A stretch of 64,000 nucleotides of DNA, taken from positions 1 through 64,000 of IMG/VR virus record IMGVR_UViG_3300017613_002557; one strand, given 5' to 3'. Shown piece after piece: positions 18,201-40,823 of this stretch. The stretch's first letter is position 1. The number at the start of each line of letters is the position of its first letter. Below the pieces are notes generated by a model, which saw only the letters and a list, made by a program, of their open reading frames with translations, made no database searches and was not told where the DNA came from. The position numbers and the translations under genes are program-made. The stretch is from a virus.

Positions 18201-18665
18201 ATGAAACATTTTATTACATACCCAGGCAAGGTACTTTACGAAAGAAACCAAATAGAACCGGGAATGCTTGTGTACGGACTGGTCAAGAAAGACTGGTTTA
18301 AAATGAAGGTTTTACGCATAAGCACCAACACGGCGCTTTGTAGAGATGTCTGTACAGGACAAGGCAGACGCCCAAACTTAAACTGTCATACTCGCGTTGT
18401 ACGTCGTGATCTTGTGGACACTGACAACGTTAAACTGCTTTGGGTTCTCTGGATGCGGTATGGTAATAATAGCCCAAAACGTAATGACAACGCCCACCAT
18501 TTAATCCAGCATATCCTCGAACAAAAAGAAACTGACTTGCAGCAGGAATACAGAACTTATGCCAAGCAGATGGCAGAAGAAAGCCTTAACCGTCTTGGCG
18601 AGGTGTTAAATGTCGTCTGGATTAGGGGCGTGTTGTTACAATCAACAGATGAGGTATCCATATGA
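18201..18665 (+). CDS. hypothetical protein
   Basis: ATG after the hairpin; ATGA overlap with next gene. Confidence 0.6.
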   Translation: MKHFITYPGKVLYERNQIEPGMLVYGLVKKDWFKMKVLRISTNTALCRDVCTGQGRRPNLNCHTRVVRRDLVDTDNVKLLWVLWMRYGNNSPKRNDNAHHLIQHILEQKETDLQQEYRTYAKQMAEESLNRLGEVLNVVWIRGVLLQSTDEVSI

Positions 18666-20203
18666 TTATTTTAGATATGCGTTACATAGCTCATAAAAAG
18701 GAATATGAGCGCAACCATCACGGCGACAACAACCCCCTTGGCATATTTTTTGGCATCAACAAAAAACTTAAGAGGGATGAAGAAACAATGGAGCATGGTG
18801 TGTGTGTGTTTTACTCACTCGATGCCATTACAGCACGGTTTCCCGATATAGATATTTCGGCACATGAGTTTGAATTGGACGAAGAATTAGAGACGATGAG
18901 CGCCGATGTTGAAAATGATGTCTATGATAGTGATGGGCTGCTCGATATATTCCATTCAAATGAGTATGTGTTTGGCGATATTGCCGCATCACTTATTGCC
19001 GCACATCCGGAAGAAAACCATGTTCTCGTAACCTCAAAAATAAGGGCGTTGCAACTCCTTTCTGACAAGGTATTCCTGTTTACGAATGGGAAGTTTTACG
19101 GTATAAACGACGCACACAACGAATATGGCATCACTGAGTTTCGTGATTTCCGCGTCATGACTGGGGATCGAAAATTTCTTCCTGGCATCAAAGGAATTGG
19201 GGAGAAAGGAGCCATCACATTGCTCCAACAGTACAAATCTCTTTATGGAATCTGTGCGAACGTTGCAAAACTTCCAGCCCGGTATGCGAAAATATTTGCG
19301 GATTTGATGCCAGCTACTTTTCATCAAATAATCTTTGACGGCAACTACCATATAGATGTGCCACTTGTCGAAGACACCACAACTGAGCTTGAAAAAACTG
19401 CTGAGATATTCAGGAATGCTATTGATCTTGGGGCTGGCGAGTCTGTGCTGTCCTTTGATCTTGAAACCACAGGGGCAGATATTGCGAAAGACAGAATCGT
19501 CCAACTACATGCCGTACTGATCTACCCAGACCGTACCGAGTCAATCGAGTATCTGATCAACCCAGACATTCCAATAGCCGCAAGAGCTACGGATGTACAC
19601 GGCATTACAGATGATATGGTGTCAGATGCTCCGACATTTCCAGATGTTGCACTTGAGGTTTTGGAGTTTTTTGAACGCGGCACCTATTGGATGGGATACA
19701 ATTCTAATTCGTTTGATATTCAGATCCTCATGAGAGAGCTTGATCAGGCAAAAAAATGGGGCGCATTCAACAACACAGAAAAAAACTACCAGGACGTTGT
19801 TGAGCAGGCAAAACTTATCGACGTAATCAGGCTAGAGCGGCATATCAACTCCCATAAACTCGAATGTGTCTACAAACGCTATTATGGTCGCCCGCTTGAT
19901 GATGCTCACGATGCTGGTGCAGACAATCTCGGAACAATCAAGGTGCTTGCGGCACAAGTAAAGTCGTCACAGCTTCTTTCAAGCGCACTCAGCGAGCTTT
20001 CTGAATTATCACGAGGTAATTCTGTGGATGTTGCCGGAAAGCTGGAACTAGATCCGTTTTCAAATGAAATCGTGTTTGCGTTTGGTCCCAAAAGAGGTGA
20101 GCCGGTCAAAGATTATCCAGGACTTGTCAAGTGGATGGAAGAAAAGGGGTTTCCACGTGATACGGTACGCATTGCAAAAGAATGTTGTAAGGGAAGAACG
20201 TAA
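18662..20203 (+). CDS. fusion of a PolI-type 5'-3' exonuclease-like (H3TH) domain and a DEDDh 3'-5' exonuclease (DnaQ-like)
   Basis: MTGD..LPGIKGIGEKGAITLLQQYKSL (H3TH); FDLETTG, GYNSNSFD, HDAGAD (DEDDh). Confidence 0.85.
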   Translation: MIILDMRYIAHKKEYERNHHGDNNPLGIFFGINKKLKRDEETMEHGVCVFYSLDAITARFPDIDISAHEFELDEELETMSADVENDVYDSDGLLDIFHSNEYVFGDIAASLIAAHPEENHVLVTSKIRALQLLSDKVFLFTNGKFYGINDAHNEYGITEFRDFRVMTGDRKFLPGIKGIGEKGAITLLQQYKSLYGICANVAKLPARYAKIFADLMPATFHQIIFDGNYHIDVPLVEDTTTELEKTAEIFRNAIDLGAGESVLSFDLETTGADIAKDRIVQLHAVLIYPDRTESIEYLINPDIPIAARATDVHGITDDMVSDAPTFPDVALEVLEFFERGTYWMGYNSNSFDIQILMRELDQAKKWGAFNNTEKNYQDVVEQAKLIDVIRLERHINSHKLECVYKRYYGRPLDDAHDAGADNLGTIKVLAAQVKSSQLLSSALSELSELSRGNSVDVAGKLELDPFSNEIVFAFGPKRGEPVKDYPGLVKWMEEKGFPRDTVRIAKECCKGRT

Positions 20204-20205
20204 TA

Positions 20206-20244
20206 TTTTATCACAACTCACTTGTGACAATAATATTGTTATGC
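20206..20244 (+). mobile_element. attI-like recombination site, copy 1
   Basis: TTTTATCACAACTCACTTGTGACAATAATATT-GTTATGC; 32/39 identical to 31220-31258; ends in a GTT core at the head of an attC-containing array. Confidence 0.6.
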
Positions 20245-20397
20245 GTCTACTCCTAAGCGTGTAAACGGTGACTCAGCCAGAGCATGAGCAGGACGAGTGA
20301 AGGCGATACCCGCAGAGCCACAACGCTGCAAGGAACTGTGCCGAAATCGACACCGTGACAAGCCGGGAGAGACCGGCCTTAGAAGTAGACGCATAAC
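20238..20397 (+). ncRNA. structured RNA unit, C4-antisense-RNA-like, closed by a 20-bp stem
   Basis: GTTATGCGTCTACTCCTAAG (20238-20257) pairs with CTTAGAAGTAGACGCATAAC (20378-20397), one mismatch; 3' GTGACA-AGCCGG-GAGAGA-CCGGC hairpin recalled as the C4 RNA 3' signature. Confidence 0.55.
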
Positions 20398-20406
20398 TGA
20401 AGTGAT

Positions 20407-20589
20407 ATGACAGAGAAAGAATATATTTCAGCCGCAAACCGAGTAAAGGTTTCAGCAGCATTAAAAATCTTATGTGATGTTTTGCCAGGTGACGAATACG
20501 GTATTTCTGATATAGAATTATCTGAAATCACAAGCAGGTTGGCGGTAGCGGAAGACAAGCTCTTTCAGTCTTATGAATGCACCGCATAA
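20407..20589 (+). CDS. small cassette-borne hypothetical protein
   Basis: Stop TAA lies inside the attC R'' box (GCA-TAA-C), as is typical of integron cassettes. Confidence 0.7.
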   Translation: MTEKEYISAANRVKVSAALKILCDVLPGDEYGISDIELSEITSRLAVAEDKLFQSYECTA

Positions 20590-20713
20590 CAATCCATTGC
20601 ACAATGAGCGAAACCGCAGTCTGTAGTTTCGACATTGTGCTTTCGCGAACGGCATGGCGGTTCATCCGGGTTCGTTGCCCGTTCTGTTTCGCCATGTGAA
20701 TGGGGCGTTATGA
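20584..20713 (+). mobile_element. attC site (130 bp)
   Basis: R'' GCATAAC ... R' GTTATGA; CCATT(G)CACA pairs with TGTGAATGG and ATG(A)GCGAAAC with GTTTCGCCAT, giving the expected unpaired bases. Confidence 0.9.
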
Positions 20714-20740
20714 GGCTTTAGTAAATACAAAGGAGTGGCC

Positions 20741-20938
20741 ATGAAGGAATATATATTTTCAGCAGAAGTTACGGTGTCAGCCATTACACGAGTTATGGCA
20801 AATAGTGAAGAAGAGGGACGTGAAATCGTTGAAGGTCGTAATGTTGAAATCGGCGGTTGGGGTTCTGGTGCTAGTGACAAAGAATCATGAGTTATTAAAG
20901 ACGCTGATGGCGAAGCTCAACACATTCATTGTTGCTGA
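20741..20938 (+). pseudogene. small cassette gene interrupted by an in-frame TGA at 20888-20890
   Basis: AAGGAG RBS, MKEYIFSAEVTVSA...SDKES*VIKDADGEAQHIHCC*; the second stop abuts the recA RBS. Confidence 0.5.
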
Positions 20939-20951
20939 GAGGAGGAAGAGT

Positions 20952-21971
20952 TTGAGCGAGAATACTACCGAACTTCGTAATGAACACACAACAAGAAAAG
21001 AACTAGCAACTGAACTTATACGCCGATTCGGACCGTCCGGATGCGTCCACATGAACGGCGTACCACACCCAGTCATTTCAACTGGCTCACACGTGCTGGA
21101 TCAGATGACGGGGATTTACGGAATCCCGGGCGGAAGAATCACGGAGATTTCCGGTGATTTTTCAACCGGCAAGTCAACAATGGCACTTCAGATTATCCGA
21201 TCGGCGCAAGCATCCGGAGGTGCAACCGCGCTGATCAATGCTGAGTATTGTTTTAGTGAACGATACGCAGCACAACTAGGCGTCAACACAAAAGATCTGG
21301 TTTTGCTTGAACCGGAGACGTTTGAGCAGGCGTTTGACATGGCTTATAAACTTATCGCATCTGGTGGGCTTAGTGTGCTGGTTGTTGATTCATTTCCTGC
21401 TCTTCTGCCAAAAGAAGAACAGATTGGCGATATGGGAGATACTGTTAGTATTCATGGAACACTGGCGAGACAAGGCATCTGTAAAATTCTGGCAGCCGCA
21501 AGTAAGAACATGTGCGCTGTGGTGATCGTCAATCAACTCCGATATAGAAATATCGCCAGATGGAATGAAGAACCAAACTGGGTAGAAATTACGCCGGGAG
21601 GAAACGTACTCAAGTTCTTTACCTCTCTAAAAATTAGTCTTAAAACAATACACCAGTCAGATGAAAAACAAGTAATTAGAGCGGCTGTGACAAAAAACAA
21701 TCTCGGTCGGCCGACTGGCGTAGTGATGACGCAGCTAAATTACGGGCATGGCTTTACGAACGGCGATATATTTATTTGTGATCTATGCAGGCAGCACTAT
21801 CTGCCAAGAAGAACCAGGTCACTATTTTCAGGATACTGTAAATGTGGATCTTGCGGAGAATGGTCTGGCGGACATTCGTATTCAAAAGATTTTCTTTCAG
21901 AAACCAAATTAATATTGAGGGAACAGCTTGACATCCTCCCAGGGCTAAAGCACCTGGGATTCCCGATTTAA
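20952..21971 (+). CDS. recA: RecA-family recombinase (divergent) with C-terminal Cys cluster
   Basis: ISTGS..LD...GIPGGRITEISGDFSTGKST, NAE, VVDS, NQLR, TPGGNVLKFF; GAGGAGG RBS with TTG at 20952. Confidence 0.92.
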   Translation: MSENTTELRNEHTTRKELATELIRRFGPSGCVHMNGVPHPVISTGSHVLDQMTGIYGIPGGRITEISGDFSTGKSTMALQIIRSAQASGGATALINAEYCFSERYAAQLGVNTKDLVLLEPETFEQAFDMAYKLIASGGLSVLVVDSFPALLPKEEQIGDMGDTVSIHGTLARQGICKILAAASKNMCAVVIVNQLRYRNIARWNEEPNWVEITPGGNVLKFFTSLKISLKTIHQSDEKQVIRAAVTKNNLGRPTGVVMTQLNYGHGFTNGDIFICDLCRQHYLPRRTRSLFSGYCKCGSCGEWSGGHSYSKDFLSETKLILREQLDILPGLKHLGFPI

Positions 21972-22050
21972 CGGGTGGTTACTACGCAAGAGGCTGCTCC
22001 CGCAGAATCGAAATTCTTTGGAAGTCTGACGCCTTGACCGTAGATTGACG

Positions 22051-22172
22051 CGGTGTGTCTTCTTCTAATGGCAGGATGCTTTCACTGAGCCATCCAGTGC
22101 TCTGTTAAAATATGGGGCGCTGTGGTGCTGGAGTGGGTAATGTGTGCTTCGATACACACAGACACACAGCCA
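22051..22172 (+). ncRNA. tRNA-like RNA with an oversized anticodon arm
   Basis: Acceptor GTGTGTCT/AGACACAC, D arm TTCT-AATGGC-AGGA, T arm GTGTG-CTTCGATA-CACAC, 3' CCA at 22170-22172; ~60-nt hairpin replaces the anticodon arm. Confidence 0.5.
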
Positions 22173-22180
22173 TTGAAACT

Positions 22181-22774
22181 ATGCAAAATTTAATTCCGAT
22201 CACACTGGGCGAAATAATGGAGTTGTGTGATGATGACCCATATCAATTTGACACAACAGAAATGCTTGATGATCGTGGCTATAAGGTCATCACTACATAC
22301 GCAGAGTATATGAGGAATCCAGAGACACTGTGTAACAGCCTCGTCTATGTAACACCTGACACACTTACATGCCTTAGATGTCCAGAGGAACATCAGGCAG
22401 AAACACCTGACACTCACATTGTCCGTATTGAAACGACGTTTCTCGATGAGGATGAGGCTGTCGTCAAAGACAACAAACTTACCATAGCAGCAACAAAATA
22501 TCTTACGCTTGTGCCGATGATACCGTATATGCTTGCAACTGGTGTGTCCATTTCGTATGACGACGACTTGACCGGAATTGCAGTACCAGCAGAAACACTG
22601 GGATTAGAAGATATGGTTATTCTTCGGGCTGATATTCCGAACCATATTGGTCCGATTCGTTTGATCATGATGAATGTGTCAGACAAAACTGTTGTCATTC
22701 CTACAGACACACCGCTTGTGAATATTATTTTTTTGGCTACTTATGAGGTGAAATTTGAACAAGACCATCTTTAG
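22181..22774 (+). CDS. degenerate dUTPase/dCTP-deaminase-fold protein
   Basis: C-terminal IPNHIGPIRLIMMNVSDKTVVIPTDTPLVNIIF matches the trimeric dUTPase pattern; RSG and GxIDxDY motifs absent. Confidence 0.5.
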   Translation: MQNLIPITLGEIMELCDDDPYQFDTTEMLDDRGYKVITTYAEYMRNPETLCNSLVYVTPDTLTCLRCPEEHQAETPDTHIVRIETTFLDEDEAVVKDNKLTIAATKYLTLVPMIPYMLATGVSISYDDDLTGIAVPAETLGLEDMVILRADIPNHIGPIRLIMMNVSDKTVVIPTDTPLVNIIFLATYEVKFEQDHL

Positions 22775-23021
22775 TAAACGAAATTTTATATTTGGCGCAG
22801 TTCTCGGAATTGCCGTGATGTTTGGGGTAGACGTTGGGATTACCGGGTTTTTAATCGGGGCTGTTATGGCAGTCCTTTCGTTATTGGTCGTCAACATACT
22901 GGACATCATGAATTCAATGCTTGCCGTGATACGTGAGCATTCGCAACTACTGGAAGATTTTGCGAACATCATAAGGACGGCGTCTTCTGTTGACACCGAG
23001 GAGGAAAAACCTGATGATTAA
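22755..23021 (+). CDS. small membrane protein (two TM segments)
   Basis: FIFGAVLGIAVMFGV...FLIGAVMAVLSLLVV; GAGGTG RBS. Confidence 0.65.
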   Translation: MNKTIFSKRNFIFGAVLGIAVMFGVDVGITGFLIGAVMAVLSLLVVNILDIMNSMLAVIREHSQLLEDFANIIRTASSVDTEEEKPDD

Positions 23022-23167
23022 GCCATTTTTCTCAACAAAGTTTGGACATATTTATCACGGCGATTGTAGGAAAATCGTGTGTGATCTGCTCTTTCCTGAA
23101 TTCGATCAGTACCACATCATCATGTTAGTTGAAAACATCACAGTATCAGGTCTATACGAGGAATAGA

Positions 23168-23701
23168 ATGGAGAATATTAAAGAACGTGTTCGAGAGATG
23201 TTGAAACAACGGATTGCCGTGTTGGATGTTGAAACGACCGGGCTGAATGCTCGTTATCATAAAATTGTGGAGATTTCGATCATTGGGAAAGGGAAAGTCT
23301 CTCTTCTGTCCACACTTGTCAACCCCTGTGTGCATATATCTGATGATGTTTCTAAGATTCATGGTATCCGTGATCATATGGTCAGGGATGCCCCTAAAAT
23401 GCACGATCTTCTTCCCAAAATACACGAAATCTTAAAGGAAATTGATATTGTATTCGCATACAACGTGCATTTTGACAAAGGGTTTATAGCTGCGGCTGGT
23501 GTGGATACTGATCTTTGCAAGTGGCAATGTGCGAAGAAACTGTTTCAAGAATATCGGCGTGTATTTATGTGGAGAAAGGGCAATATTTCTCTAGGTAATG
23601 CCTGTAGAGAAACAGGCATTACCTTAACAGTGGCACATCGCGCAGAGAATGATACGGCTGTAACCCTGGAACTTCTTGAGTACATGGCGCAAGACCATTA
23701 G
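23168..23701 (+). CDS. DEDDh 3'-5' exonuclease
   Basis: VLDVETTGL, AYNVHFD, AHRAEND. Confidence 0.92.
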   Translation: MENIKERVREMLKQRIAVLDVETTGLNARYHKIVEISIIGKGKVSLLSTLVNPCVHISDDVSKIHGIRDHMVRDAPKMHDLLPKIHEILKEIDIVFAYNVHFDKGFIAAAGVDTDLCKWQCAKKLFQEYRRVFMWRKGNISLGNACRETGITLTVAHRAENDTAVTLELLEYMAQDH

Positions 23702-25473
23702 TTTTTTCTGTGATCAGACAGAACAATCACATCGGCCCCCGTTTCAGGCGGTGCAATAAGGTCCAGCAGAGATTGTTTTGTCTTGTCTGATGCCGCCCCA
23801 CTGTTACGTAAACGGCTTACGGCACTCCTATTAATCTTAGCTCTCCTGGCTAATTCGTTGCCAGTGATACCACCAGTTTGAAGATACTGCTCAACAAGTT
23901 GCTGAAGTTCAGCTTCTTTGCCGAGTGAAACGTCTGGAACGGGCATAATAGCAGGCGTTTCATGTTGCAACGTTTCTTGCAACACTTCTGGAACGGACGT
24001 GCTGTTCCTACTGTCGTTTCGTGGCGTTTCAGTGTTGCATGATGCTGTTTTTGCAACGGCGTTATATGCGGTTTTTAACACTGTGTTGCACGTTAGTGTT
24101 GGTCCGTTTGCCTGTTTCAACGTTTCTGCGGTCGCCAAAATATCATGTTCTGTAATAAGCGGCATCGACACCTTAGACGGATCCATGTCACACGATGTTG
24201 CCAGTAACGCATCTCCAGGGTTTTTAAGTTCCTTAATAAGTTTTCTTTCGGATGCTGACGCATTTTCCATAAGAAAATCTGCCTGTGATGGTTTAGACTT
24301 ATGCACGAGATATGATTGGATGGACTGCCGGAAAGCCGCACTGTTTTTAAAAAATTTTGCCTGCCATTTATGGCATCCGAAAAAGGCAACAACATTGGCT
24401 TTTCGAGTCTCTTCAGTACAGCGTTCCGCGAACGGGACAACGTAGTCTGAAAATGAGGCTGACTTTCCAATCCTGTTCATCTCATCGAACAGAACAAACA
24501 CGAGTGGCTCAGATGGTATGAGCCCAGATAATCGCGCATCTAGAACCGCATTAAGGGCACGCATTAAATGCGGTAAGTCAAACGGATTGATAATCATCAA
24601 ACGCCCCGTTGCTTCCAGGGGTTTCAAGATGTAACCAAGACCTTCATGGTGATTTTTATGTGGATCAACTACGTAGCCAACACTATCAGGATATTGCAGG
24701 AGCAAGGACGATGCAATATACGCGAACGATAATGTTTTGCCACTTCCCTGCCATCCGGCTATAGCCATTGATTTAAGGTCATTAACACTACGATACTGTG
24801 GCTCATTCTTCGAGTATCCAAAACAGAGTGGGTGTCCAGGTGAAATAACTCCAGATTGCACAAGCTCTGAAAACGGTGGTGTGGCGTGTTCGATGTCAAT
24901 AACACCTTCTGTGATGGCCTCAAGATTGTCGTGTCTGATGTGATTCAATTCACGAATGCGCCCAGTGGATAAGGCACGAAGCTGCTGGACACTGTTTTCA
25001 GCTACGAGGCTATAAATTTCCATAGCTTTCTCCGGAGATTTCGCCTCAATCTTTGCGGCAATCGCCATGTCTTTTGCACTTCCTGGCGAGACGTTTTCCA
25101 GATCCTTATAGCGGACGGGAATTTCTGCTTCTGCAAACTTGAAGATGAACACAGAAAGCCGCCGACTGTAGGAAAACCCGATAGATAGGGCAACAATTGA
25201 TCCAGACACAAAAAGAAGGCTGTAGCACGTATATTTGATCGTTCGCCATATCGGAATACTGTGCTCCTTGTCTTCTATGACGGCGATTTCATAGCGGTAC
25301 TTTGCAGCATCGCGTTCTTCACGCAATTGATCGCTGATGGTAAGTTTTCCTGCCGCCCCAAGTGACGGAAAATCAATAGATTTGATTCCAGAAACTATGA
25401 GAACTATGAAGACAGTCAGAAAAAAACCAATAAAAGTGAATGCTCTTTTGTGAGATGTTTTGTCAGGTGTCAT
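23698..25473 (-). CDS. membrane-anchored FtsK/HerA-superfamily ATPase with C-terminal HTH
   Basis: Two N-terminal TM segments, IAGWQGSGKT Walker A, VVDPH, VLFDEMN Walker B, ITGNELARRAKINRSAVSRLR HTH. Confidence 0.8.
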   Translation of the reverse strand: MTPDKTSHKRAFTFIGFFLTVFIVLIVSGIKSIDFPSLGAAGKLTISDQLREERDAAKYRYEIAVIEDKEHSIPIWRTIKYTCYSLLFVSGSIVALSIGFSYSRRLSVFIFKFAEAEIPVRYKDLENVSPGSAKDMAIAAKIEAKSPEKAMEIYSLVAENSVQQLRALSTGRIRELNHIRHDNLEAITEGVIDIEHATPPFSELVQSGVISPGHPLCFGYSKNEPQYRSVNDLKSMAIAGWQGSGKTLSFAYIASSLLLQYPDSVGYVVDPHKNHHEGLGYILKPLEATGRLMIINPFDLPHLMRALNAVLDARLSGLIPSEPLVFVLFDEMNRIGKSASFSDYVVPFAERCTEETRKANVVAFFGCHKWQAKFFKNSAAFRQSIQSYLVHKSKPSQADFLMENASASERKLIKELKNPGDALLATSCDMDPSKVSMPLITEHDILATAETLKQANGPTLTCNTVLKTAYNAVAKTASCNTETPRNDSRNSTSVPEVLQETLQHETPAIMPVPDVSLGKEAELQQLVEQYLQTGGITGNELARRAKINRSAVSRLRNSGAASDKTKQSLLDLIAPPETGADVIVLSDHRKN

Positions 25474-25521
25474 AAATATTTTATGCTTTTACATAGTTGT
25501 TATAGGTGAATTATAAAGTTA

Positions 25522-25713
25522 TTATAATTCTGACACGTTTTTTGCTATATCACCTTGAAGATCAGCATACAATTTTATAACTGCTGCGCTGGCGATCTCT
25601 TTAAGCTTTTTCCCTTTAAAGTCTGTTGCAAACTGAAGTGCTTTAAGTTTTTCGTGTGCCTCTTCGGAAATTGAGATTCCTGGGCGTCTTTTTGCATCAT
25701 CATCTGTTGTCAT
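25522..25713 (-). CDS. small ribbon-helix-helix-like regulator
   Basis: RPGISISEEAHEKLKAL...LKEIASAAV; GGAG RBS. Confidence 0.55.
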   Translation of the reverse strand: MTTDDDAKRRPGISISEEAHEKLKALQFATDFKGKKLKEIASAAVIKLYADLQGDIAKNVSEL

Positions 25714-25830
25714 ATTTTTCTCCATTTTGTAAACTGGTGAATAAAAAGCGAATAATATTTTAATAAAAACCATAATAAACTAAAATTGCAAAGTCTGTCA
25801 ATAAAAAAATGAGTTTTTATAAAAAAACTC

Positions 25831-25859
25831 TTGACATCCTTTTGAAAATATGCAATGAT
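25831..25859 (+). promoter_or_regulatory. Sigma70-type promoter
   Basis: TTGACA-N14-TGC-AATGAT; closely resembles the promoter at 1157. Confidence 0.7.
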
Positions 25860-25916
25860 CATATTATCGTCGAAAGTGTGTAATTGAGTAAATGCTATCC
25901 AAAAAAAGGAGCTATC

Positions 25917-26669
25917 ATGGATTCAGAATGTTTGCATGAAAACATTGGCGTTATACGTCAATGCGGAACACGTGTTCGAGGAGTTCCCTACATCTGCTGC
26001 GGCAAGTCAATTTATGGCCGCCCGATCAGTTACTTTATTAAATGCCCGCCAATAAAAATTCCCTTTAGCTTCAAAAAGCGCGGAATGCTGCTGTTTACAA
26101 AGAAAGATCCCAACACCGGCGAAGACATATATCACATCCTTGATCATGTTGGTATGCAATATCAGGTTGCTGATATGATCGAGGAGGTGAGGGCGCATGG
26201 GTTGTCTCGGAAAACCCATGAAAACTTTCCGTTTGATAAGCTGGATCCGTTCAAAAGCAAAATCTGGCTGTGTCACTCACAAGCGTGGATTCGTAGAATG
26301 ACAGACACATTTGAGACGTGGGAGTGTCAAAAAAAACTTGTGGCCCATATGCCGGATTACATGCGAGAAAATACTCCGGAACTGTGCTGTAGTGGCGGCT
26401 GGTATCAAAACATCCGCGATGCTGTGCCTTATGTGAAAACAGATGTTATCGATCTGTTCCCGCGTCCTGTTGAACGAACATTAGAAGGAGGACATACATA
26501 CATTGGATCAGCATCTCCAGAAGACTGTGAACTTGAGTATAACGAAGCGGTTTTTTTGGTGCTGCCGATTACCAATATTTCGGTCCCTGAATATGGGGCC
26601 GAATCAAGACGGGTTGTTCAAAAAATCAGAGAAAAGTCTGATATTCCAGTTCTCGAAACGGAGGCATAG
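25917..26669 (+). CDS. hypothetical protein (Cys/His-containing)
   Basis: CCAAAAAAAGGAG RBS; 250 aa. Confidence 0.7.
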   Translation: MDSECLHENIGVIRQCGTRVRGVPYICCGKSIYGRPISYFIKCPPIKIPFSFKKRGMLLFTKKDPNTGEDIYHILDHVGMQYQVADMIEEVRAHGLSRKTHENFPFDKLDPFKSKIWLCHSQAWIRRMTDTFETWECQKKLVAHMPDYMRENTPELCCSGGWYQNIRDAVPYVKTDVIDLFPRPVERTLEGGHTYIGSASPEDCELEYNEAVFLVLPITNISVPEYGAESRRVVQKIREKSDIPVLETEA

Positions 26670-26670
26670 T

Positions 26671-26901
26671 ATGTACCAAAACAACACGTTTAAAAGTGAC
26701 TGCATCTATAGCAGACATGCGTCTGTCAATAAATACGGCGAAATAGATCCAACCACTAGAAGAAAAGGATTTTTTATGGAGTGGCATCAATCAAACAACA
26801 GAGTTCGTGCAATTGTGGTTGACGCCGAAACGCAAGCACCTGTTATGGTTGGTTTACGTCAAATTAAGTTCGTGCCTGAAATTAATAACACAGAATCATG
26901 A
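26671..26901 (+). CDS. hypothetical protein
   Basis: GGAGG RBS. Confidence 0.55.
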   Translation: MYQNNTFKSDCIYSRHASVNKYGEIDPTTRRKGFFMEWHQSNNRVRAIVVDAETQAPVMVGLRQIKFVPEINNTES

Positions 26902-26944
26902 AAGTATGTATGTGTTGCATGCACATATATACGATCAATAGATT

Positions 26945-28267
26945 ATGCAAGAAACACCAAATCACAAAATACACGCATTGATTAAAGAAACGTTCGGGGA
27001 CCATCCGGTTTTTCTCAAAACCGGTGATTTTTACACCACCTATAACGCCGATGCACACACAGTAAGCGGCATTATTGGTGTCAAAATACAGAAAATTGAC
27101 AATGATACCGGGACATACGAGATGCTGGAAATTCCGCCAGACAGCAATGGACACTTCGACAGCATCAAACACTTGCGCCCGGTCATGGTCAATGATACAA
27201 AAGATCCATTCAATACTTTCCGCTATTACGGCGAAGACAAGCCAAAGCAAACTGAACTCTGGGAATTGCCTGATCAACCGATAATACGGCCAAAACGGCG
27301 AATACTTCTGCTCGACCAATTTGAGCCAAATGATAAATTCCATCGGTTGCCACCAACTGAAGATTTTGTCACAAGCATGCGATACGTTTTGATCAATGAC
27401 ATTGCGGTCGCTGAACCAGACGAAGATGGTGAATTTTTCAAAGTCGCTGCTGGTCAAGGGCGCATATGGTCTGCAAGAATCCTGAACGAACGACTCGGAG
27501 AAGAATCACCATATTGGGGCGGTATCAGATCAAATGTGTGGCCGAAAAACACACCACTTGATTGGATTCGACTCATTGAGAATAAAATCCGTGAAGAGAA
27601 CGTTCTAAGCGACTTATTCGCTTATAAGAACCTTCTTCAATCCGGCAGAACGGTTGCTGAAGTCTCCAGAATGGTCGGGAAAAAGCAGAGCGCTGTTAAA
27701 CGGACTCTGTCACTCGATGCGCTGGTTCCGGAATTGCGTCAACGGCTTATGACCGGCGATATGTCAGCAACTACGGCATTACATGTGGCCCGTAAAAAGT
27801 GGAGTGAGAAAACACAGCAGGCGTTTACTAAAGACTGCAAAACACGCAACGTATCGGACAGGATTATTGGGAAAGATGTGATGGAATTCCTGAAGGTTCA
27901 CGAGGGCAGGCAAGAGTTTTTTGATTCAATTAATGATGACACCAGGTCGCTTGAAGAACTCAAGGAAGAGAATATCAAAGAGACGACTAAACAGAATCCT
28001 GGTGAATACACGTGCCACGATTGTGGCGGTACTGGCTTGTACCCGACCGGAAAAGGTGTTGCTGGGGTAACATCTGCGATTGTCAAAAAAAACGCCTACA
28101 ACGCTGCTGATGAATCAGAAGAACCATGTTACCATGATGAGGTGACAATTGTCTTTTCATTTCAGTCGCCACTGAATTCAAAAGCTCCATTGAGTATGAC
28201 GATCTATGCTCAGGACGGGCAAAAGTACGCCAAAGAAAATTTTCACATTGACGCTGAGGTCAAGTAG
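26945..28267 (+). CDS. MutS domain I-like / ParB-like fusion with HTH
   Basis: KETFGDHPVFLKTGDFYTTYNADAHTVSGIIGV (MutS-I); FKVAAGQGRIWSA, LIENKIRE, TVAEVSRMVGKKQSAVKRTLSL (ParB N-domain and HTH). Confidence 0.75.
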   Translation: MQETPNHKIHALIKETFGDHPVFLKTGDFYTTYNADAHTVSGIIGVKIQKIDNDTGTYEMLEIPPDSNGHFDSIKHLRPVMVNDTKDPFNTFRYYGEDKPKQTELWELPDQPIIRPKRRILLLDQFEPNDKFHRLPPTEDFVTSMRYVLINDIAVAEPDEDGEFFKVAAGQGRIWSARILNERLGEESPYWGGIRSNVWPKNTPLDWIRLIENKIREENVLSDLFAYKNLLQSGRTVAEVSRMVGKKQSAVKRTLSLDALVPELRQRLMTGDMSATTALHVARKKWSEKTQQAFTKDCKTRNVSDRIIGKDVMEFLKVHEGRQEFFDSINDDTRSLEELKEENIKETTKQNPGEYTCHDCGGTGLYPTGKGVAGVTSAIVKKNAYNAADESEEPCYHDEVTIVFSFQSPLNSKAPLSMTIYAQDGQKYAKENFHIDAEVK

Positions 28268-28329
28268 GTTTAGAATTGGTCAAATACTGAGGCTGGGATC
28301 CCCGCCTCAACATAGCATTGGAGAATAGT

Positions 28330-28971
28330 ATGAAACCCTACATCAGACAAAAAGTAAAGAGGGCACGAGAGGTGTTTTTGAGTCGGTTCGACATCGAGCT
28401 TTCAATGAAGATGCACAATCAATTGGTCGGGCAGATTACGAATGGAAACGCTGAACTTGTGGCACATAAAGATAGAAACACCGCCCTGTATAGAATGACG
28501 ATACGTGGGCAAAAGATGGTCGTTGTCTATCATAAAAAGGATCAGTACATTGTGACGGCTCTGTTTGATAAAGAGCAAACCCATACATTAGCCTGGGAAT
28601 GCGGGTTTAAATGCGGACTTGCTCGTCAACAGACGAAAAACCCGCACCCAGAAGACACACAGGAATACTGGGAATTTGAACACGGCAGAATTGCCGGTAG
28701 AAACCGGAGTATTGAGAGCGCGAACATGCCGTCTGCAAAAGAGTACAAAGAAACTCATGGGAAAATCCCGTACGGCACAATTCTTTTGCTGTGTGACGAT
28801 ACCTACATTTTTTCTGAGCGTTCTAATGGGTTTGTAGTTACTGGCAGGACGTCAGGAAATAGTGACAAGGGCATCGACTTGCGTCAAAGAGGTGCGCGGG
28901 TTGCAGGAAGATGTTCAGACATAAATACGTGGCTTCGATATGGCTCAATTTTTCCGCTTGAGGAGGTATAG
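28330..28971 (+). CDS. hypothetical protein
   Basis: GGAG RBS; 213 aa. Confidence 0.65.
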   Translation: MKPYIRQKVKRAREVFLSRFDIELSMKMHNQLVGQITNGNAELVAHKDRNTALYRMTIRGQKMVVVYHKKDQYIVTALFDKEQTHTLAWECGFKCGLARQQTKNPHPEDTQEYWEFEHGRIAGRNRSIESANMPSAKEYKETHGKIPYGTILLLCDDTYIFSERSNGFVVTGRTSGNSDKGIDLRQRGARVAGRCSDINTWLRYGSIFPLEEV

Positions 28972-28972
28972 T

Positions 28973-30733
28973 TTGACTCACAAACGTATTCCTGATACGG
29001 TGCTTACTGAAATCAGACAACAAGCTGACATTGTCGAAGTGATTTCAGAATACGTCGCATTGACGAAGTCCGGGAAAAACTATAAGGGACTGTGCCCATT
29101 CCATCAGGAAAAAACGCCGTCCTTTGTGGTCAGTCCTGAAAAGAAAATTTTTCACTGTTATGGCTGCGGTGTCGGTGGAAATATCTTCTCTTTTCTTGTA
29201 AAGCATGAAAAGTGCTCGTTTCCTGAATCTGTCGGTATGTTGGCAAAACGCGCCGGTATCAACATGTCGGACAATACTGACACACAAGGCACACAAGGCA
29301 CACAGCAGATTGAACACAAAGATCAACTGTATCGGCTACACAAGGATGTTAGCGAGTATTTCACAACACAACTTGTCAGCAATCATAACGCTACTGAGCG
29401 CCTTCGGCAACGAGAGGTCTGCGCGGCAGCGGCACAGTCATTTTCACTAGGATATGCACTCCCGTCATGGGAGAATATACAGAAACACTTTGCCAGCAAA
29501 TACCCGATCGATCTGCTTCTTGAAAGCGGCTTGCTAATACAGCGTAAAAATGGCAATGGATACTATGACCGGTTTCGTGATCGGATCATAATTCCAATCA
29601 CAGATGATCGCGGCCGGGTGATCGCGTTTGGCGGGAGAGCAGTCAATGATGACCTAAAATATGTAAACTCGTCAGAATCACCGATCTTTCAGAAAAACCG
29701 GGTACTGTTTGGACTCAGTCATGCAAAACAAGCCATTCACCAGCATGGGTATGTCGTAATTGTCGAAGGTTATTTTGACATGATTGTGCCCTTTAGTCTG
29801 GGTGTGCAAAATATCGTTGCCACAATGGGAACGGCATTAACACAGCAGCACTTACGTGTACTTCAGCGGTATACCCGCAATGTTGTTCTGATGTTTGATG
29901 GCGATCACGCCGGAATCACTGCTGTGCAGCGTTCTCTCGATCTGTTTCTTGAGTCTGGGTTTACTGTGACGGCTGCTGTTCTACCAAAAGATATTGACCC
30001 AGATAAGATGATTCGAGAAATGGGAGTAGACCAATTTAAGCAATGTATCACACAGGCGCACCCACTGCTCGATTTTATCCGTGGTCATATCATGGCACAA
30101 TACGATCTTTCGCGTACCGATCAACGTGTCGCCTGCGCGAATAAAATCTTGGCGACAATTGTCAAAATTCAAAATATTCCAGAACGCAATACCCAGATCA
30201 GTAAAACTGCCGGGTTGCTCCAAATAACGGATGCGGACAAAGCTCTTCTGGATGAATTTCGTAAAGGGACACGTACCGGCAAGCCACGTGTGACAATTCC
30301 GGTAAAGACAGAGATCGCACTTCCTCCTCTGGAGCGCTTTCTAGTGAAAGCCCTGTTGAAAGACAAACAGCTTATTAAATATGTCAAACATGTTGGGCCA
30401 GCTACTTTTTCGCACACAATCACACGTAAAGTAATTGAGGTGTTGCTGTTTAACGAAACATCTGAGTGCGAGTCACGTGTTTTAGACCACTTTCACACAG
30501 CAGACTACCAATCATACCTCACAGAACTGTTTCTGCAAGTAGATGAGGTTGTGGACCCAGAGACGACAGTCAGAGATTGTTTGAACAGACTACAACAACA
30601 GACAGCCAGGAAACGTGCATGTAAGGACACATTGCGGCTGCAAGAACTACAAGAGCAAACAGACAGTGTCGAATTCGCTGCGCTTATCCAGCGCAAAAAT
30701 AAACAACTTCAGGAAAAGCGACATCAAAAATAG
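28973..30733 (+). CDS. dnaG: DNA primase DnaG (full-length, cellular type)
   Basis: CPFHQEKTPSF..FHCYGC zinc finger, DRFRDRII, FGGR, KYVNS, VEGYFD, FDGD.AG, DPD; GAGGAGG with TTG 28973. Confidence 0.97.
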   Translation: MTHKRIPDTVLTEIRQQADIVEVISEYVALTKSGKNYKGLCPFHQEKTPSFVVSPEKKIFHCYGCGVGGNIFSFLVKHEKCSFPESVGMLAKRAGINMSDNTDTQGTQGTQQIEHKDQLYRLHKDVSEYFTTQLVSNHNATERLRQREVCAAAAQSFSLGYALPSWENIQKHFASKYPIDLLLESGLLIQRKNGNGYYDRFRDRIIIPITDDRGRVIAFGGRAVNDDLKYVNSSESPIFQKNRVLFGLSHAKQAIHQHGYVVIVEGYFDMIVPFSLGVQNIVATMGTALTQQHLRVLQRYTRNVVLMFDGDHAGITAVQRSLDLFLESGFTVTAAVLPKDIDPDKMIREMGVDQFKQCITQAHPLLDFIRGHIMAQYDLSRTDQRVACANKILATIVKIQNIPERNTQISKTAGLLQITDADKALLDEFRKGTRTGKPRVTIPVKTEIALPPLERFLVKALLKDKQLIKYVKHVGPATFSHTITRKVIEVLLFNETSECESRVLDHFHTADYQSYLTELFLQVDEVVDPETTVRDCLNRLQQQTARKRACKDTLRLQELQEQTDSVEFAALIQRKNKQLQEKRHQK

Positions 30734-30745
30734 GAGCGTACGCCG

Positions 30746-30943
30746 ATGTTATCAAACGAGCAAGTTACCAAAATTCAGGCTGCTATTCAGGCTATTGAGA
30801 CAGCAGAAGAAGTTAGTATTTGTCATACTTTTCTGACCGATGCAAAAATACTGTTACAAGAAGTGCTTGGCGAAGATCAGTCTGATCAATATCTTGACAT
30901 TGAGGCTAAAATATTCGATGAAAGCGATTTTGACGAGGGCTAA
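30746..30943 (+). CDS. small acidic protein
   Basis: AGGAG RBS. Confidence 0.6.
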   Translation: MLSNEQVTKIQAAIQAIETAEEVSICHTFLTDAKILLQEVLGEDQSDQYLDIEAKIFDESDFDEG

Positions 30944-30947
30944 ATAT

Positions 30948-31184
30948 ATGACAAACGAACAAAAGTTACACCTTGCTCTTGCAACTTTACGAGGTATCGT
31001 AGACTATGAAAGATCGCTAAAAGACACTCCAGGATTCGATGGTGCTGTATGGGTAATGTCATATACAGGACTAAACATGTGTGGATATTTGGACAAAGAT
31101 TTTGGCGATCTTCATGCATACCCAACAGAGAAAGAGAACCCTCAAAGGTGGGTAGCAGAAAGACAACAATGTCATGCAAAATAG
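30948..31184 (+). CDS. hypothetical protein
   Basis: GAGG RBS, ATG 30948. Confidence 0.55.
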   Translation: MTNEQKLHLALATLRGIVDYERSLKDTPGFDGAVWVMSYTGLNMCGYLDKDFGDLHAYPTEKENPQRWVAERQQCHAK

Positions 31185-31219
31185 CACTGCCGGTATTTAA
31201 ATGGCACACAAGACGTGAT

Positions 31220-31258
31220 TTTTATCACGAGTAAGTCGTGACAATTATATTGTTATAC
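31220..31258 (+). mobile_element. attI-like recombination site, copy 2
   Basis: TTTTATCACGAGTAAGTCGTGACAATTATATT-GTTATAC; GTTATACGCC matches the far cassette end GGCGCATAAC (31891-31900). Confidence 0.6.
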
Positions 31259-31452
31259 GCCTTGCGGCAGCGCAGTTCCTTGAAAAAAAAGTTTCTCCTT
31301 GTTTTCCTGTTATACAGGCGAAATCAGACACGGGGCAAAAATGTTTCATTTATTTTGTTTAATCTACTTGACAAATTAAACAAAAAGACTTATTGTGTAT
31401 ATTACAAGACGGAAACAAGGTAAAACAAACAATCAAAACAAGGAGAAAAATC

Positions 31453-31683
31453 ATGAGAGATTACACACAAGAAGAAGCTGACCGGAAAGAATTAGTTGCA
31501 ATGAATCAGGCTATTGAAGACGCCTCGCAAGGTATGAGCTACGAAGAAATGATGAAAGATCCAAAGGTTGTGGTATTAATCCAAAAACGTGATGACTTCA
31601 AAGAACAAATCGAGGCGATGGCACAGGAAGAACTCGACGAATACAAAAAAGAAAATCCTTTTTTCAGTGAGTTATTAGCATGA
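31453..31683 (+). CDS. small acidic protein, gene 1 of a promoter-bearing cassette
   Basis: TTGACA at 31368 and AAGGAG RBS upstream; ATGA overlap with gene 2. Confidence 0.7.
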   Translation: MRDYTQEEADRKELVAMNQAIEDASQGMSYEEMMKDPKVVVLIQKRDDFKEQIEAMAQEELDEYKKENPFFSELLA

Positions 31684-31889
31684 AGAAAGAAACGAGAGGT
31701 GGCGCAGGCAGGAATCAAGGCTTGCGCCCCGGAACCTATAAAAACGCACAGAAGCCGCCGGAATTTAAGCATAGTATCAAAAAGCAAGTAAGCTACACGC
31801 CGGAACAGTGGCAGCGTGTAGAGGCAAAAATGAAAGAATACGGCATAAAGAAATTTAGCGATTATGCCAGAATGTTAACTTTATCATAG
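31680..31889 (+). CDS. small DNA-binding protein (RGG..GR N-terminus, RHH-like C-terminus)
   Basis: RGGAGRNQGLRP...KKQVSYTPEQWQRVEAKMKEYGIKKFSDYAR. Confidence 0.7.
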   Translation: MKKETRGGAGRNQGLRPGTYKNAQKPPEFKHSIKKQVSYTPEQWQRVEAKMKEYGIKKFSDYARMLTLS

Positions 31890-31893
31890 CGGC

Positions 31894-31955
31894 GCATAAC
31901 AAAAAATTGTACGCGACCGGAAAAAGCGCCCGGCGCGTAAATTTCGCCGTTATGC
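31894..31955 (+). mobile_element. attC site (62 bp)
   Basis: GCATAAC...GTTATGC; AAATT(G)TACGCG(A)CCGG pairs with CCGGCGCGTAAATTT with two extrahelical bases. Confidence 0.93.
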
Positions 31956-31977
31956 AACTTATGTTTGGAGGTAACGC

Positions 31978-32718
31978 ATGAAAATAGAACAACATATTTT
32001 AGATATAATCGAAGAAGGCAAAACAGACGGGAATTTATTTTTTCTGCCAAATCGTCAGCTTGACCGCAAGGTTTACCAGGATGTAAACAAGGTTCTTGGG
32101 TGTCTCGGAGGAAAGTGGAATCGGAAATTTAAGGCCCATGTGTTTGAGTCTGATATTTCAGGCGCTATTGATGATGTACTTTTAACCGGCGAAGTTATTA
32201 GCAAGAAACAAGAGTTTCAGTTTTTTGAAACGCCGGAACCTATTGTCAACCAACTTATCGAATTAGCAGAAATTGAAGTAGGGCATAAATGTCTTGAACC
32301 TTCTGCCGGTCATGGGAATATCGCTGAAGCATTGCGCGAAATTGTTGGCGATAACGTGACGTGTGTTGAAATGATGCCGGAAAATGTTGCTGTCCTTGTA
32401 AGCAAAGGTTTTCAGGTGCATGAAGGTGACTTTTTGCAGTATCTTTCCGGCGTAGGTTATGACAGAATTATCATGAATCCTCCATTCACACGACAACAGG
32501 ACATCGCCCATGTCGAAAAAGCTTTAATGCATCTGAAGGATGGCAGTATTCTTGTTTCTGTGATGTCTGTCGGCGTAACGTTTCGACATGACAAAAAGAC
32601 AACTGACTTTTGGTATAAACTTAGTGGATACGATTATGAGATTATTGAGTTGCCAATAGGAGCGTTTAAGGTTTCCGGTACTATGGTCAATGCAATAATC
32701 TTGAAGGTCGTTGCATAA
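31978..32718 (+). CDS. cassette-borne amino (N6-adenine-type) DNA methyltransferase-like protein
   Basis: FFETP, LEPSAGHG (motif I), IMNPPF (motif IV), AFKVSGT.V; stop inside attC R''. Confidence 0.9.
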   Translation: MKIEQHILDIIEEGKTDGNLFFLPNRQLDRKVYQDVNKVLGCLGGKWNRKFKAHVFESDISGAIDDVLLTGEVISKKQEFQFFETPEPIVNQLIELAEIEVGHKCLEPSAGHGNIAEALREIVGDNVTCVEMMPENVAVLVSKGFQVHEGDFLQYLSGVGYDRIIMNPPFTRQQDIAHVEKALMHLKDGSILVSVMSVGVTFRHDKKTTDFWYKLSGYDYEIIELPIGAFKVSGTMVNAIILKVVA

Positions 32719-32821
32719 CAACCGCTTGCAGCCAGATTTGACCGCGTGGGTTCAAATCTGGCTGCTAAATTACAAGCTTCGGTGGCGCGTGGGTTCAAAC
32801 TGCTGAAGCGGAACGTTAGTA
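32713..32821 (+). mobile_element. attC site (109 bp)
   Basis: GCATAAC...GTTAGTA; CCGCTT(G)CAGC(C)AG(A)TTTGA pairs with TCAAACTGCTGAAGCGG. Confidence 0.88.
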
Positions 32822-32843
32822 GTGCTTGAGAGGGATAATAATT

Positions 32844-33134
32844 ATGGACGGGAAAGAGATGTGTGCATTATTGAAACAGGAGGCACAAAAAGGAAATATT
32901 TGTTTTTTCGCTACACCTGATGAACTTGTAAAAGTGAACCTTGATGAGTTTATCAGGCAACCAGCAGAAGGTATGCTGTATGATTTGAATAGAAACAAAA
33001 TCACCGTATTACATTTCATCACTCAAGGGAACATGAAATGGGTGAATAATTATGCAGTGGCATTAGTGATAGAAAAATTAAGAGAGGTTGTTGGCCGTAC
33101 TGCTAACAAAACATTGGAAACGACACAGGGCTGA
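32844..33134 (+). CDS. cassette-borne hypothetical protein
   Basis: GAGAGGG RBS; cassette start GTTAGTAGTGC matches end GTACTGCTAAC (33097-33107) at 9 of 11 positions. Confidence 0.7.
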   Translation: MDGKEMCALLKQEAQKGNICFFATPDELVKVNLDEFIRQPAEGMLYDLNRNKITVLHFITQGNMKWVNNYAVALVIEKLREVVGRTANKTLETTQG

Positions 33135-33135
33135 G
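33101..33135 (+). mobile_element. left half of an attC site; right arm not found
   Basis: TGCTAAC-AAAACATTGGAAACGAC fits R''/L'' but no complementary arm within 150 bp. Confidence 0.5.
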
Positions 33136-33455
33136 CGGTGAACTTGCGGAAGCATTTAAAAATTAGATCCTCTGTTGAGCCGCCTTTTAAAATATGAAAT
33201 ATTTTTCTGATGATGAAATGTTGAAGAAAAGTCAGTTTTTTGCTTTTGCCTGCATTGGTGGGATGAAAGAAGGTTTTGACTATTCAGAGACGAAGGCGCT
33301 TTGTAAATATTGGGGCGAACAACGGCGAAAAAATCACTATCATGGTGGGTTTTTTAAGGAAGTTTCAGGTCAGCAGGCGTTGCGTCTACAGCGCCAGACT
33401 AGCAAAAGTTAGCAAATGACTGCTGTGACGCGCATCGCTTGAGAGGTGAAATAGC

Positions 33456-39986: not shown

Positions 39987-40034
39987 ACGTGTAGTTATAC
40001 CGATATTGGAAGAAAAGTCAAGAAGAGGAGTGCC

Positions 40035-40823
40035 ATGGCGCAATTTGTTAGAATACCAAAAGACGAGGATCTTAACACCCAGGAAGTCCTGTGGAGAGAT
40101 GAACACGATCCGGAACATAAGCTGAATCTGAATCAAGTCCAGTTCAGAACGAAACAACACGCCAAGTTTATGTTACAAGCCGAGGAACGCAAAGAACGCG
40201 AGTTGGCACTTAAAGAAAAAGCGCATGATCTTGTCATGAAAAAACAGGAAGCTAAGGAAGATGCAGTTTTGAGAAGAGATGAGTTCAAACAAAACGAACT
40301 GTTACGAGATCGCATTGAGCGCATTCAGCATGAATTACACGAAGAACGTACAAAAAATTCGCAAAAACCAACAAGCGTGTCGGTTGAGGAATTTATGGCG
40401 TCTGCCAGGGATCTCTCAGAAAAAGCTACCGTAGATGATCTTATGCAAGTGCTCCAGGCCCGAATGATTATGGCCTCACAGCACATGGAATTACGACCGC
40501 AAGATTATATCGCCTCGGTAAAAATGCTCCGCGAACTCACACGAGAAGAAAACCCGGTAGAAGTACAAGACCCATACGAGCTGACAATACTCGATGATGA
40601 AGAACTCTGCGAAGTTTTTATTGAGACTCTTTTGGTCCACTTTAGGCATTGGGAATCACAGCAGCAGCCTGAAGTGCGCCTCCATTGGATCCCAACGTTC
40701 ATACGTGAACTTATTTTGACGATTGTGTTGAATCGCGAGTGCCCGGAATTGTTAAAAGATGTCTCTATGTGTGTCAACGTATCTGTAGCCGCAAGAAGTG
40801 GAAAGCAAGACACAGAAATTTGA
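40035..40823 (+). CDS. coiled-coil protein divergent from terL; candidate terminase small subunit
   Basis: GAGGAG RBS; long helical region, DYIASVKMLRELT; call based mostly on position. Confidence 0.45.
   Translation: MAQFVRIPKDEDLNTQEVLWRDEHDPEHKLNLNQVQFRTKQHAKFMLQAEERKERELALKEKAHDLVMKKQEAKEDAVLRRDEFKQNELLRDRIERIQHELHEERTKNSQKPTSVSVEEFMASARDLSEKATVDDLMQVLQARMIMASQHMELRPQDYIASVKMLRELTREENPVEVQDPYELTILDDEELCEVFIETLLVHFRHWESQQQPEVRLHWIPTFIRELILTIVLNRECPELLKDVSMCVNVSVAARSGKQDTEI

Follow-up and report, generated by a model that had tools for sequence, protein, structure and literature searches.

Probable integron gene cassettes in two arrays headed by a shared 40-nt element in a 90-kb phage record without an integron integrase gene

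Integron components have been described in phages. In a screen of 10,705 phage genomes, Qi et al. (2023; PMC9892861) found such components in 21 and reported 17 clusters of attC sites lacking an integron integrase (CALINs), distributed among both temperate and virulent phages, as well as five methyltransferase cassettes; of six phage attC sites assayed, five were recombined by the integrase IntI1. Loot et al. (bioRxiv 10.1101/2022.09.11.507474) reported that integron integrases (IntI) insert cassettes at GWT sites almost anywhere in a genome, generating single attC sites lacking an integron integrase (SALINs). Here, we describe two arrays of small gene cassettes in a phage represented by the linear, 90,004-bp IMG/VR virus record IMGVR_UViG_3300017613_002557, the first 64 kb of which constitute the stretch of DNA analysed (referred to as the window). 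This phage most probably carries integron cassettes without an integron, in the form of one SALIN (array 1) and one small CALIN (array 2). Because phage CALINs were published in 2023, the present case belongs to a known kind, and the initial annotation of the window, in which such clusters were regarded as known mainly from cellular genomes, overestimated its novelty; phage CALINs, methyltransferase cassettes, and recombination by IntI1 are all contained in PMC9892861. What is unusual is the presence of one shared 40-nt element (hereafter, the twin element) at the head of both arrays. Further particulars are the gene-then-attC orientation of the cassettes inside replication operons and the comparative evidence of mobility obtained for one cassette.

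Four small cassettes are present, one in array 1 and three in array 2 (two complete and one decayed), and they are designed as one or two small genes with an attC site behind them. The attC site of array 1 (S1) stands alone, 11 kb upstream of array 2, in which two sites (S2 and S3) are 0.8 kb apart, and the record contains no integron integrase, which corresponds to the definitions of a SALIN and a CALIN, respectively. An intI gene adjacent to the cassettes, which marks a complete integron, is absent from the 90-kb record. Like the phages of Qi et al., this phage contains co-oriented, attC-bounded cassettes in the absence of intI and carries an orphan DNA methyltransferase as cargo, and the location of an array directly behind a hairpin with a GTT core also has a counterpart in a CALIN described by these authors. 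Unlike those phages, it is a very divergent phage of about 130 kb, in which two arrays are located 11 kb apart and headed by one 40-nt element. Array 1, a single cassette with one attC site placed at a G/TT within DNA that is otherwise ordinary, resembles the SALINs of Loot et al., but the latter were described in bacterial chromosomes, and the present one resides in a phage. In addition, a GWT with short motifs beside it is all that insertion at attG sites needs, but one and the same 40-nt element appears to have been used twice in the present phage.

With classical integrons (class 1 integrons and the chromosomal integrons of Vibrio), the two arrays share the attC architecture, the cassette organization, the G/TT junctions, the complementarity between cassette starts and ends, and growth of the array from a fixed, promoter-proximal site. 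They differ from classical integrons in being located within phage replication operons in a phage without intI, in containing only 1 + 3 cassettes, and in that the attI site and the cassette promoter (Pc) are putative. In T4-type phages, promoter-early stem-loop (PeSL) cassettes bound plastic regions, occur many times per genome, and act through homologous recombination. The twin element is similar to PeSL in that a short repeated hairpin with a promoter-like element is located at the edge of accessory modules, but it exists in just two copies and the genes behind it carry attC sites.

The three complete attC hairpins are located on the plus strand at 20584–20713 (S1, 130 nt, the end of cassette 1), 31894–31955 (S2, 62 nt, the end of cassette 2), and 32713–32821 (S3, 109 nt, the end of cassette 3). 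They share a common layout, in which the R'' box GCATAAC is followed by 5 nt, three paired nucleotides, an unpaired G, a stem, and a variable centre. In the predicted folds, the other arm is composed of the stem, three paired nucleotides, a spacer of 5–6 nt, and GTTRNNN, and a second unpaired base, an A, is located ~6 bp deeper in all three sites. In S2, the R and L boxes are each paired at 7/7 positions, and the unpaired G and A are 6 bp apart. The R' box is GTTATGA, GTTATGC, or GTTAGTA, and its pairing with the R'' box within the array is 6/7 in S1, 7/7 in S2, and 4/7 in S3. In S1, the G/TT crossover lies at 20707/20708. The hairpins with their R''/R' cores, paired arms, and extrahelical bases are thus placed where the initial annotation had put them, and its statement that stop codons lie in or next to R'' is borne out by the positions of the open reading frames (ORFs): the stop codons of a 60-aa ORF in cassette 1 and of the methyltransferase gene are inside R'', and that of a 69-aa ORF in cassette 2 is 5 nt ahead of it. 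One terminator-like stem was noted inside S1.

The start of each cassette is complementary to the R'' box at the end of the same cassette, a pairing that the excised circular form needs. For cassettes 1–4, this pairing amounts to 7/7, 6/7, 7/7, and 6/7 in the core, in keeping with the complementary cassette ends noted earlier, and to 8/8, 9/10, 10/10, and 9/11, respectively, when extended. S3 shows the pattern that integron arrays are expected to show, with only 4/7 pairs with the following R' but 7/7 (10/10 extended) with its own cassette start. S3 also holds a near-perfect 14-bp local hairpin (CAGCCAGATTTGA.../...TCAAATCTGGCTG) at 32725–32762, which is the dominant structure in the fold predicted for both strands and stands in competition with pairing of the L box, a point already made in the initial annotation.

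When both strands of the complete 90-kb record were scanned under strict geometric criteria, S1 and S2 were the only matches, compared with 0.03 matches per shuffled genome; S3 was missed solely because its in-array R''/R' pairing is 4/7. A loose geometric scan was non-discriminating (18 matches versus 15.6 in shuffled sequences), and an independent attC test was therefore sought. For this purpose, a covariance model (R1) was constructed from 12 attC sites adjoining IntI genes in the genomes of a Vibrio, a Methyloversatilis, and an Accumulibacter, in which intI was found using NCBIfam TIGR02249; five further genomes searched for integron arrays provided no usable attC sites. These IntI-adjacent sites show the same layout as the phage sites. 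The first unpaired base on their coding strand varies (T or C in Vibrio; C, C, or G in the Methyloversatilis sites; C in Accumulibacter), which puts the G left unpaired in the phage sites inside the natural range.

When R1 was run over the window with filters off, S2 (26.7 bits, E = 1.6e-5), S1 (21.0 bits, E = 0.001), and S3 (12.6 bits, E = 0.43) were the top three matches, in this order, all at full length, on the plus strand, and at exactly the coordinates given above. In two clinical class 1 integrons outside the training set, the model recovered the attC sites at the expected places (after aadA25, qacL, dfrA25, and others) with scores of 15.9–31.6 bits, and its maximum in 88 kb of unrelated viral contigs was 17.7 bits. 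S1 and S2 therefore pass the attC test. The score of S3 is weak because the following R' belongs to the next cassette (4/7 pairs); the S3 homologue in a metagenome locus described below (L018) scored 23.4 bits. Scoring by attC covariance models, which had been named as a check on the initial annotation, thus places all three of its sites at the top of the window. In the remaining 26 kb of the record (63.9–90 kb), R1 scored nothing above 9.4 bits, and no further site was found.

Two other groups of R1 matches lie outside the arrays. The fourth-ranked match in the window, a 41-nt segment on the minus strand (24051–24091; 12.0 bits) inside a gene for a 591-aa AAA/HTH protein, was rejected as an attC site because it is too short and its score is within the noise range. 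At 49311–49764, five tandem copies of a 73-nt unit, with spacings of 78–102 nt (multiples of 3), give rise to four identical weak matches to the model; these repeats reside in a 702-aa ORF (48684–50792) and reflect repetition of a module of the protein rather than a DNA element.

Evidence of mobility was obtained for cassette 3 (31950–32815, plus strand), which is composed of an orphan DNA methyltransferase gene (246 aa; 31978–32718) and attC S3. The protein matches PF05175 and DNA methyltransferase PHROGs and has 5099 homologues, and the genomic contexts of its relatives were compared in 80 metagenome loci encoding them. In L018 and L023, whose methyltransferases show 83 and 72% amino acid identity, respectively, the gene is located between attC sites, as it is in the window, while ~28 other close homologues (63–74% identity) were found in ordinary phage-like contexts in which hairpin flanks are absent. 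In a three-way DNA alignment of the window, L018, and L023, homology extends from the CGTTAT upstream of the gene to the following CGTTA, and the sequences beyond these limits show no relationship. The cassette ends are GTTATGCAAC...GTTGCATAAC in the window and L018 and GTTATACAAT...ATTGTATAAC in L023; the latter differ by two compensatory changes, so that the R box of the excised circle stays paired. The comparison of breakpoints among relatives, on which the initial annotation had proposed to stand or fall, thus came out in its favour, because the homology of the methyltransferase cassette breaks exactly at the GTT cores. That the attC hairpins bound discrete cassettes is likewise sustained by the occurrence of the same methyltransferase unit in three different neighbourhoods.

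The attC 3' halves that flank the methyltransferase cassette in L018 (Ga0136651_10116939; positions 1–43 and 836–878) are identical over 43 nt and diverge directly after GTTATGC, which suggests a homogeneous array resembling a sedentary chromosomal integron. A third hairpin in L018 (about 1118–1240) contains the L box and the unpaired G and A, and its R'' lacks AAC. In six other metagenome contigs, canonical attC-type sites of 52–84 nt are present a few kilobases from methyltransferase homologues (L037:273–330 and 1335–1392; L040:1901–2739; L044:5086–5142; L035:4934–4985; L024:2888–2945; and L056:8311–8693, minus strand). No IntI-like gene was found in the examined stretches of these contigs (L024, L035, L037, L040, L044, and L056), and they may represent further phage CALINs.

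Both arrays start at a copy of the twin element on the plus strand. Copy 1 (20206–20248) begins 3 nt past the stop codon of an exonuclease gene and contains a 9-bp inverted repeat (TTATCACAA / TTGTGACAA) with a 5-nt spacer, followed by an AT-rich segment that extends to the G/TT at 20238–20240. Copy 2 (31220–31262) contains the corresponding inverted repeat (TTATCACGA / TCGTGACAA), and its G/TT is located at 31252–31254. The two copies are identical at 35 of 43 positions and are unique in the 90-kb record, where the next best match has at least 16 mismatches; the observation that the same site, given as 39 bp in the initial annotation, stands at the start of both arrays is thereby corroborated. 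Each copy ends at the G/TT at which its first cassette starts, and past this point the copies share only the R-box bases that are common to every cassette start. The inverted repeat is kept paired through one compensatory change between the copies, and the hairpin fold of copy 1 has a z-score of -2.8. The twin element is not itself a small attC site: R1 scored at most 5.6 bits for copy 1, and copy 2 was also rejected. In IMG/VR, a long twin-site pattern gave no match, and the ten matches to a short pattern were all coding look-alikes without the inverted repeat. The element carries no known attI signature; attI sites lack conservation between integron classes. The simplest reading is that the twin element served as a recombination target on two occasions, and it may plausibly act as a docking site of the attI-like kind.

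Cassette 1 (20239–20707, plus strand), after which the phage backbone resumes, consists of a 160-nt structured non-coding element (20238–20397), the 60-aa ORF (20407–20589), and attC S1. The structured element forms the 5' end of the cassette and is closed by a 20-bp stem, the outer 7 bp of which are GTTATGC/GCATAAC; this stem is an inverted repeat with 95% complementarity and uses the first bases of the cassette. The predicted RNA fold is far better than those of shuffled sequences, with z = -5.4 on the plus strand and -6.6 on the minus strand. The initial annotation had regarded the element as a separate, C4-like RNA cassette. Because no attC site comes after 20238–20397, however, the element is part of cassette 1, and the C4-like identity was rejected, as no Rfam family was found in 20150–20800 at E values up to 10 or anywhere in the window at gathering thresholds. 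The 60-aa ORF product had no Pfam or PHROG match.

Array 2 follows the gene for a DnaG primase (28940–30733) and is headed by cassette 2 (31253–31949, plus strand), which contains an AT-rich leader of ~200 nt, two ORFs, and attC S2. The leader includes a promoter-like site (TTGACA-17-TATTGT) at 31368. The ORFs, of 76 aa (31453–31683) and 69 aa (31680–31889), overlap and are coupled, and the product of the latter showed a weak NikA-like match. Downstream of cassette 3, the last unit (cassette 4) starts at the G/TT at 32815/32816 and encodes a 96-aa protein (32844–33134, plus strand), for which no relative was found in IMG/VR. A half-site at 33098–33120 on the same strand, composed of an R''/L'' part (TGCTAAC, 5 nt, ATT-G-...), is complementary to the start of cassette 4. 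It has no L'/R' partner, and array 2 therefore ends in a decayed attC site; a complete fourth attC at 33098 was discarded as a candidate, R1 having no match in 33050–33300.

The phage nature of the record is evident from genes for a large terminase (38220–40160), a DnaB-type helicase, and a second helicase, and plus-strand replication and recombination genes surround both arrays. Array 1 lies between a gene for a 5'-3' exonuclease/RNase T fusion protein (18662–20203) and recA (about 20952–21971), both on the plus strand, and genes for a dUTPase-like protein, an exonuclease, and a MutS-I/ParB-HTH protein are present on the plus strand around the arrays. The start of recA is ambiguous (20741–20952); the public call of 376 aa, starting near 20841, overlaps a 49-aa ORF (20741–20890) that follows attC S1. 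RecA has no IMG/VR relative and shows at most 39% identity to any of 5.8 billion proteins, relatives of the primase and the exonuclease reach just 27–39% identity, and no phage matched this record in a megablast search. The phage is uncultured, very divergent, and about 130 kb in size.

The absence of an integrase, first noted for the window, extends to the whole 90-kb record: no tyrosine recombinase was detected with PF00589 or TIGR02249, and a tblastn search with three IntI proteins gave no match. The sole recombinase-like gene of the record is located outside the window, at positions 74576–75142 of the record (L181:1339–1905), and encodes a protein of 188 aa in which a MerR/HTH_17 domain at the N-terminus is combined with a resolvase catalytic domain. 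This predicted architecture fits IS607-type transposases, which are serine recombinases, and an action of such an enzyme on attC hairpins is not expected. A 347-aa ORF that overlaps the downstream end of this gene had no Pfam match. The catalyst is most likely a host IntI acting in trans; an intI gene of the phage, located in the unrecovered 30% of its genome, is the less likely alternative.

If the phage carries integron cassettes in this manner, the bottom strand of each attC site would fold, in the single-stranded state, into a hairpin in which the R box, an unpaired spacer, and the L box, together with the extrahelical bases, are presented to IntI. Cassettes could then be inserted, excised, and exchanged by the host IntI or, with lower likelihood, by an IntI encoded in the unrecovered 30%, and insertion would have occurred twice at the G/TT that closes the phage-specific 40-nt hairpin element, which would have provided a target of the attI-like or attG type. 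The cassettes may be transcribed together with the surrounding plus-strand replication genes, from a promoter in the twin element, or, for cassette 2, from a promoter of its own. The cargo would serve the phage, with the orphan methyltransferase acting against restriction and with small regulators in addition. Several points weigh against the proposal that the phage carries integron cassettes. The completeness of the record is ~70% according to CheckV, and no integrase, host, or related phage was identified. The last unit lacks a complete attC site, and the score of S3 by itself falls in the noise range of R1, a home-made model whose E-values are rough and which is distinct from the IntegronFinder/HattCI models. 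The G+C content of the cassettes equals that of the phage, and with no import signature in their composition they did not arrive recently from a genome of different composition.

The twin element could be, as the initial annotation proposed, a dedicated attI-like docking site of 39–43 nt, maintained in two copies at which a host IntI loads and shuffles cassettes, a reading that is conceivable, but short of probable. Two copies in 90 kb that are each located exactly at an array start, an inter-copy similarity that stops at the G/TT (barring the common R-box bases) between unrelated flanks, the compensatory change in the inverted repeat, and the different cassettes of the two arrays, as independent loading would predict, are all in line with it. 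Two copies, however, allow no statistics, and with no relative of the element in IMG/VR neither its conservation nor empty or otherwise filled sites can be demonstrated. Upstream GTTR repeats of the IntI-binding type are absent, the right flanks of arrays 1 and 2 share no similarity, and a special site would be unnecessary in any case, because IntI inserts at almost any GWT (bioRxiv 10.1101/2022.09.11.507474). The twin element may instead be an ordinary regulatory unit of the phage, comparable to the PeSL of T4-type phages and serving as a terminator hairpin, as a promoter–operator unit, or in both roles. The cassettes would then abut it because its hairpin and GTT made it an attG-type secondary hotspot or because the unit was copied by phage recombination; this is conceivable to the same degree. 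It would account for the position of copy 1 immediately behind the exonuclease gene and for copy 2 being flagged as both promoter-like (TTATCA-18-TATATT) and terminator-like, and Qi et al. noted one phage CALIN right behind a terminator hairpin in which GTTRRRY motifs are present (PMC9892861). Yet the sigma-70-like promoter match of the element is weak, its promoter and terminator scores are no better than those of shuffled sequences, and a promoter or terminator in general use by the phage should occur more often than twice in 90 kb. A more ambitious form of the docking-site reading is that the phage keeps an integrase-less platform, with two attI-like elements of its own and operator-like hairpins, and borrows the SOS-induced IntI of its host to load, exchange, and express phage-beneficial cassettes in its replication operons; this we regard as doubtful.

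The cassettes themselves could also have other origins or functions. It is unlikely that the arrays are dead remains of an integron array from a bacterium, captured by illegitimate or homologous recombination, no longer recombined, and kept for their genes alone. The lack of an integrase in the record, the decayed last attC, the competing hairpin inside S3, and the fully phage-like composition would be explained in this way, but the R and L boxes and the unpaired bases are intact in three attC sites, complementarity between each cassette start and its own R'' has been kept, and random capture would not produce two arrays starting precisely at the G/TT of the same element. Processing by a recombinase other than IntI, such as an enzyme of the Xer type that works on folded DNA, an enzyme of the phage encoded in the missing 30%, or the small serine recombinase at 74.6 kb, is very unlikely. 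The R box GCATAAC/GTTATGC resembles half a dif-type site, and the protein with MerR-HTH and resolvase domains is indeed encoded in the record; against this, the phage sites cannot be told apart from IntI-adjacent attC sites by geometry or model score, no tyrosine recombinase of any kind is present in the 90 kb, and we know of no serine recombinase that acts on such hairpins. The least probable explanation, to which we give hardly any credence, is that the hairpins are merely transcription terminators or intergenic RNA structures not involved in recombination. A terminator-like stem is found in S1, and attC sites can be weak terminators (PMC9892861), but this explanation is already contradicted by the homology breakpoints at G/TT in three contexts, the covarying cassette ends in the alignment, and the R1 scores, and neither conserved unpaired bases nor AAC/GTT cores are required for termination.

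Read as integron cassettes without an integron, the two arrays represent a clean and well-delimited addition to the short list of cassette-carrying phages (21 of 10,705; PMC9892861). They also provide direct comparative evidence that a methyltransferase of the anti-restriction type moves between environmental elements in the form of an integron cassette. If the integrase-less platform described above were real, attI function would have evolved in and been kept by a virus, in contrast to a piece of a bacterial array that is passively carried. If recombination does target the shared 40-nt element, phages would be more than carriers of cassettes; they would have entry sites of their own for them and exploit host integrases in trans, which would widen the reach of gene exchange through integrons and offer a route to link uncultured phages with integron-bearing hosts.

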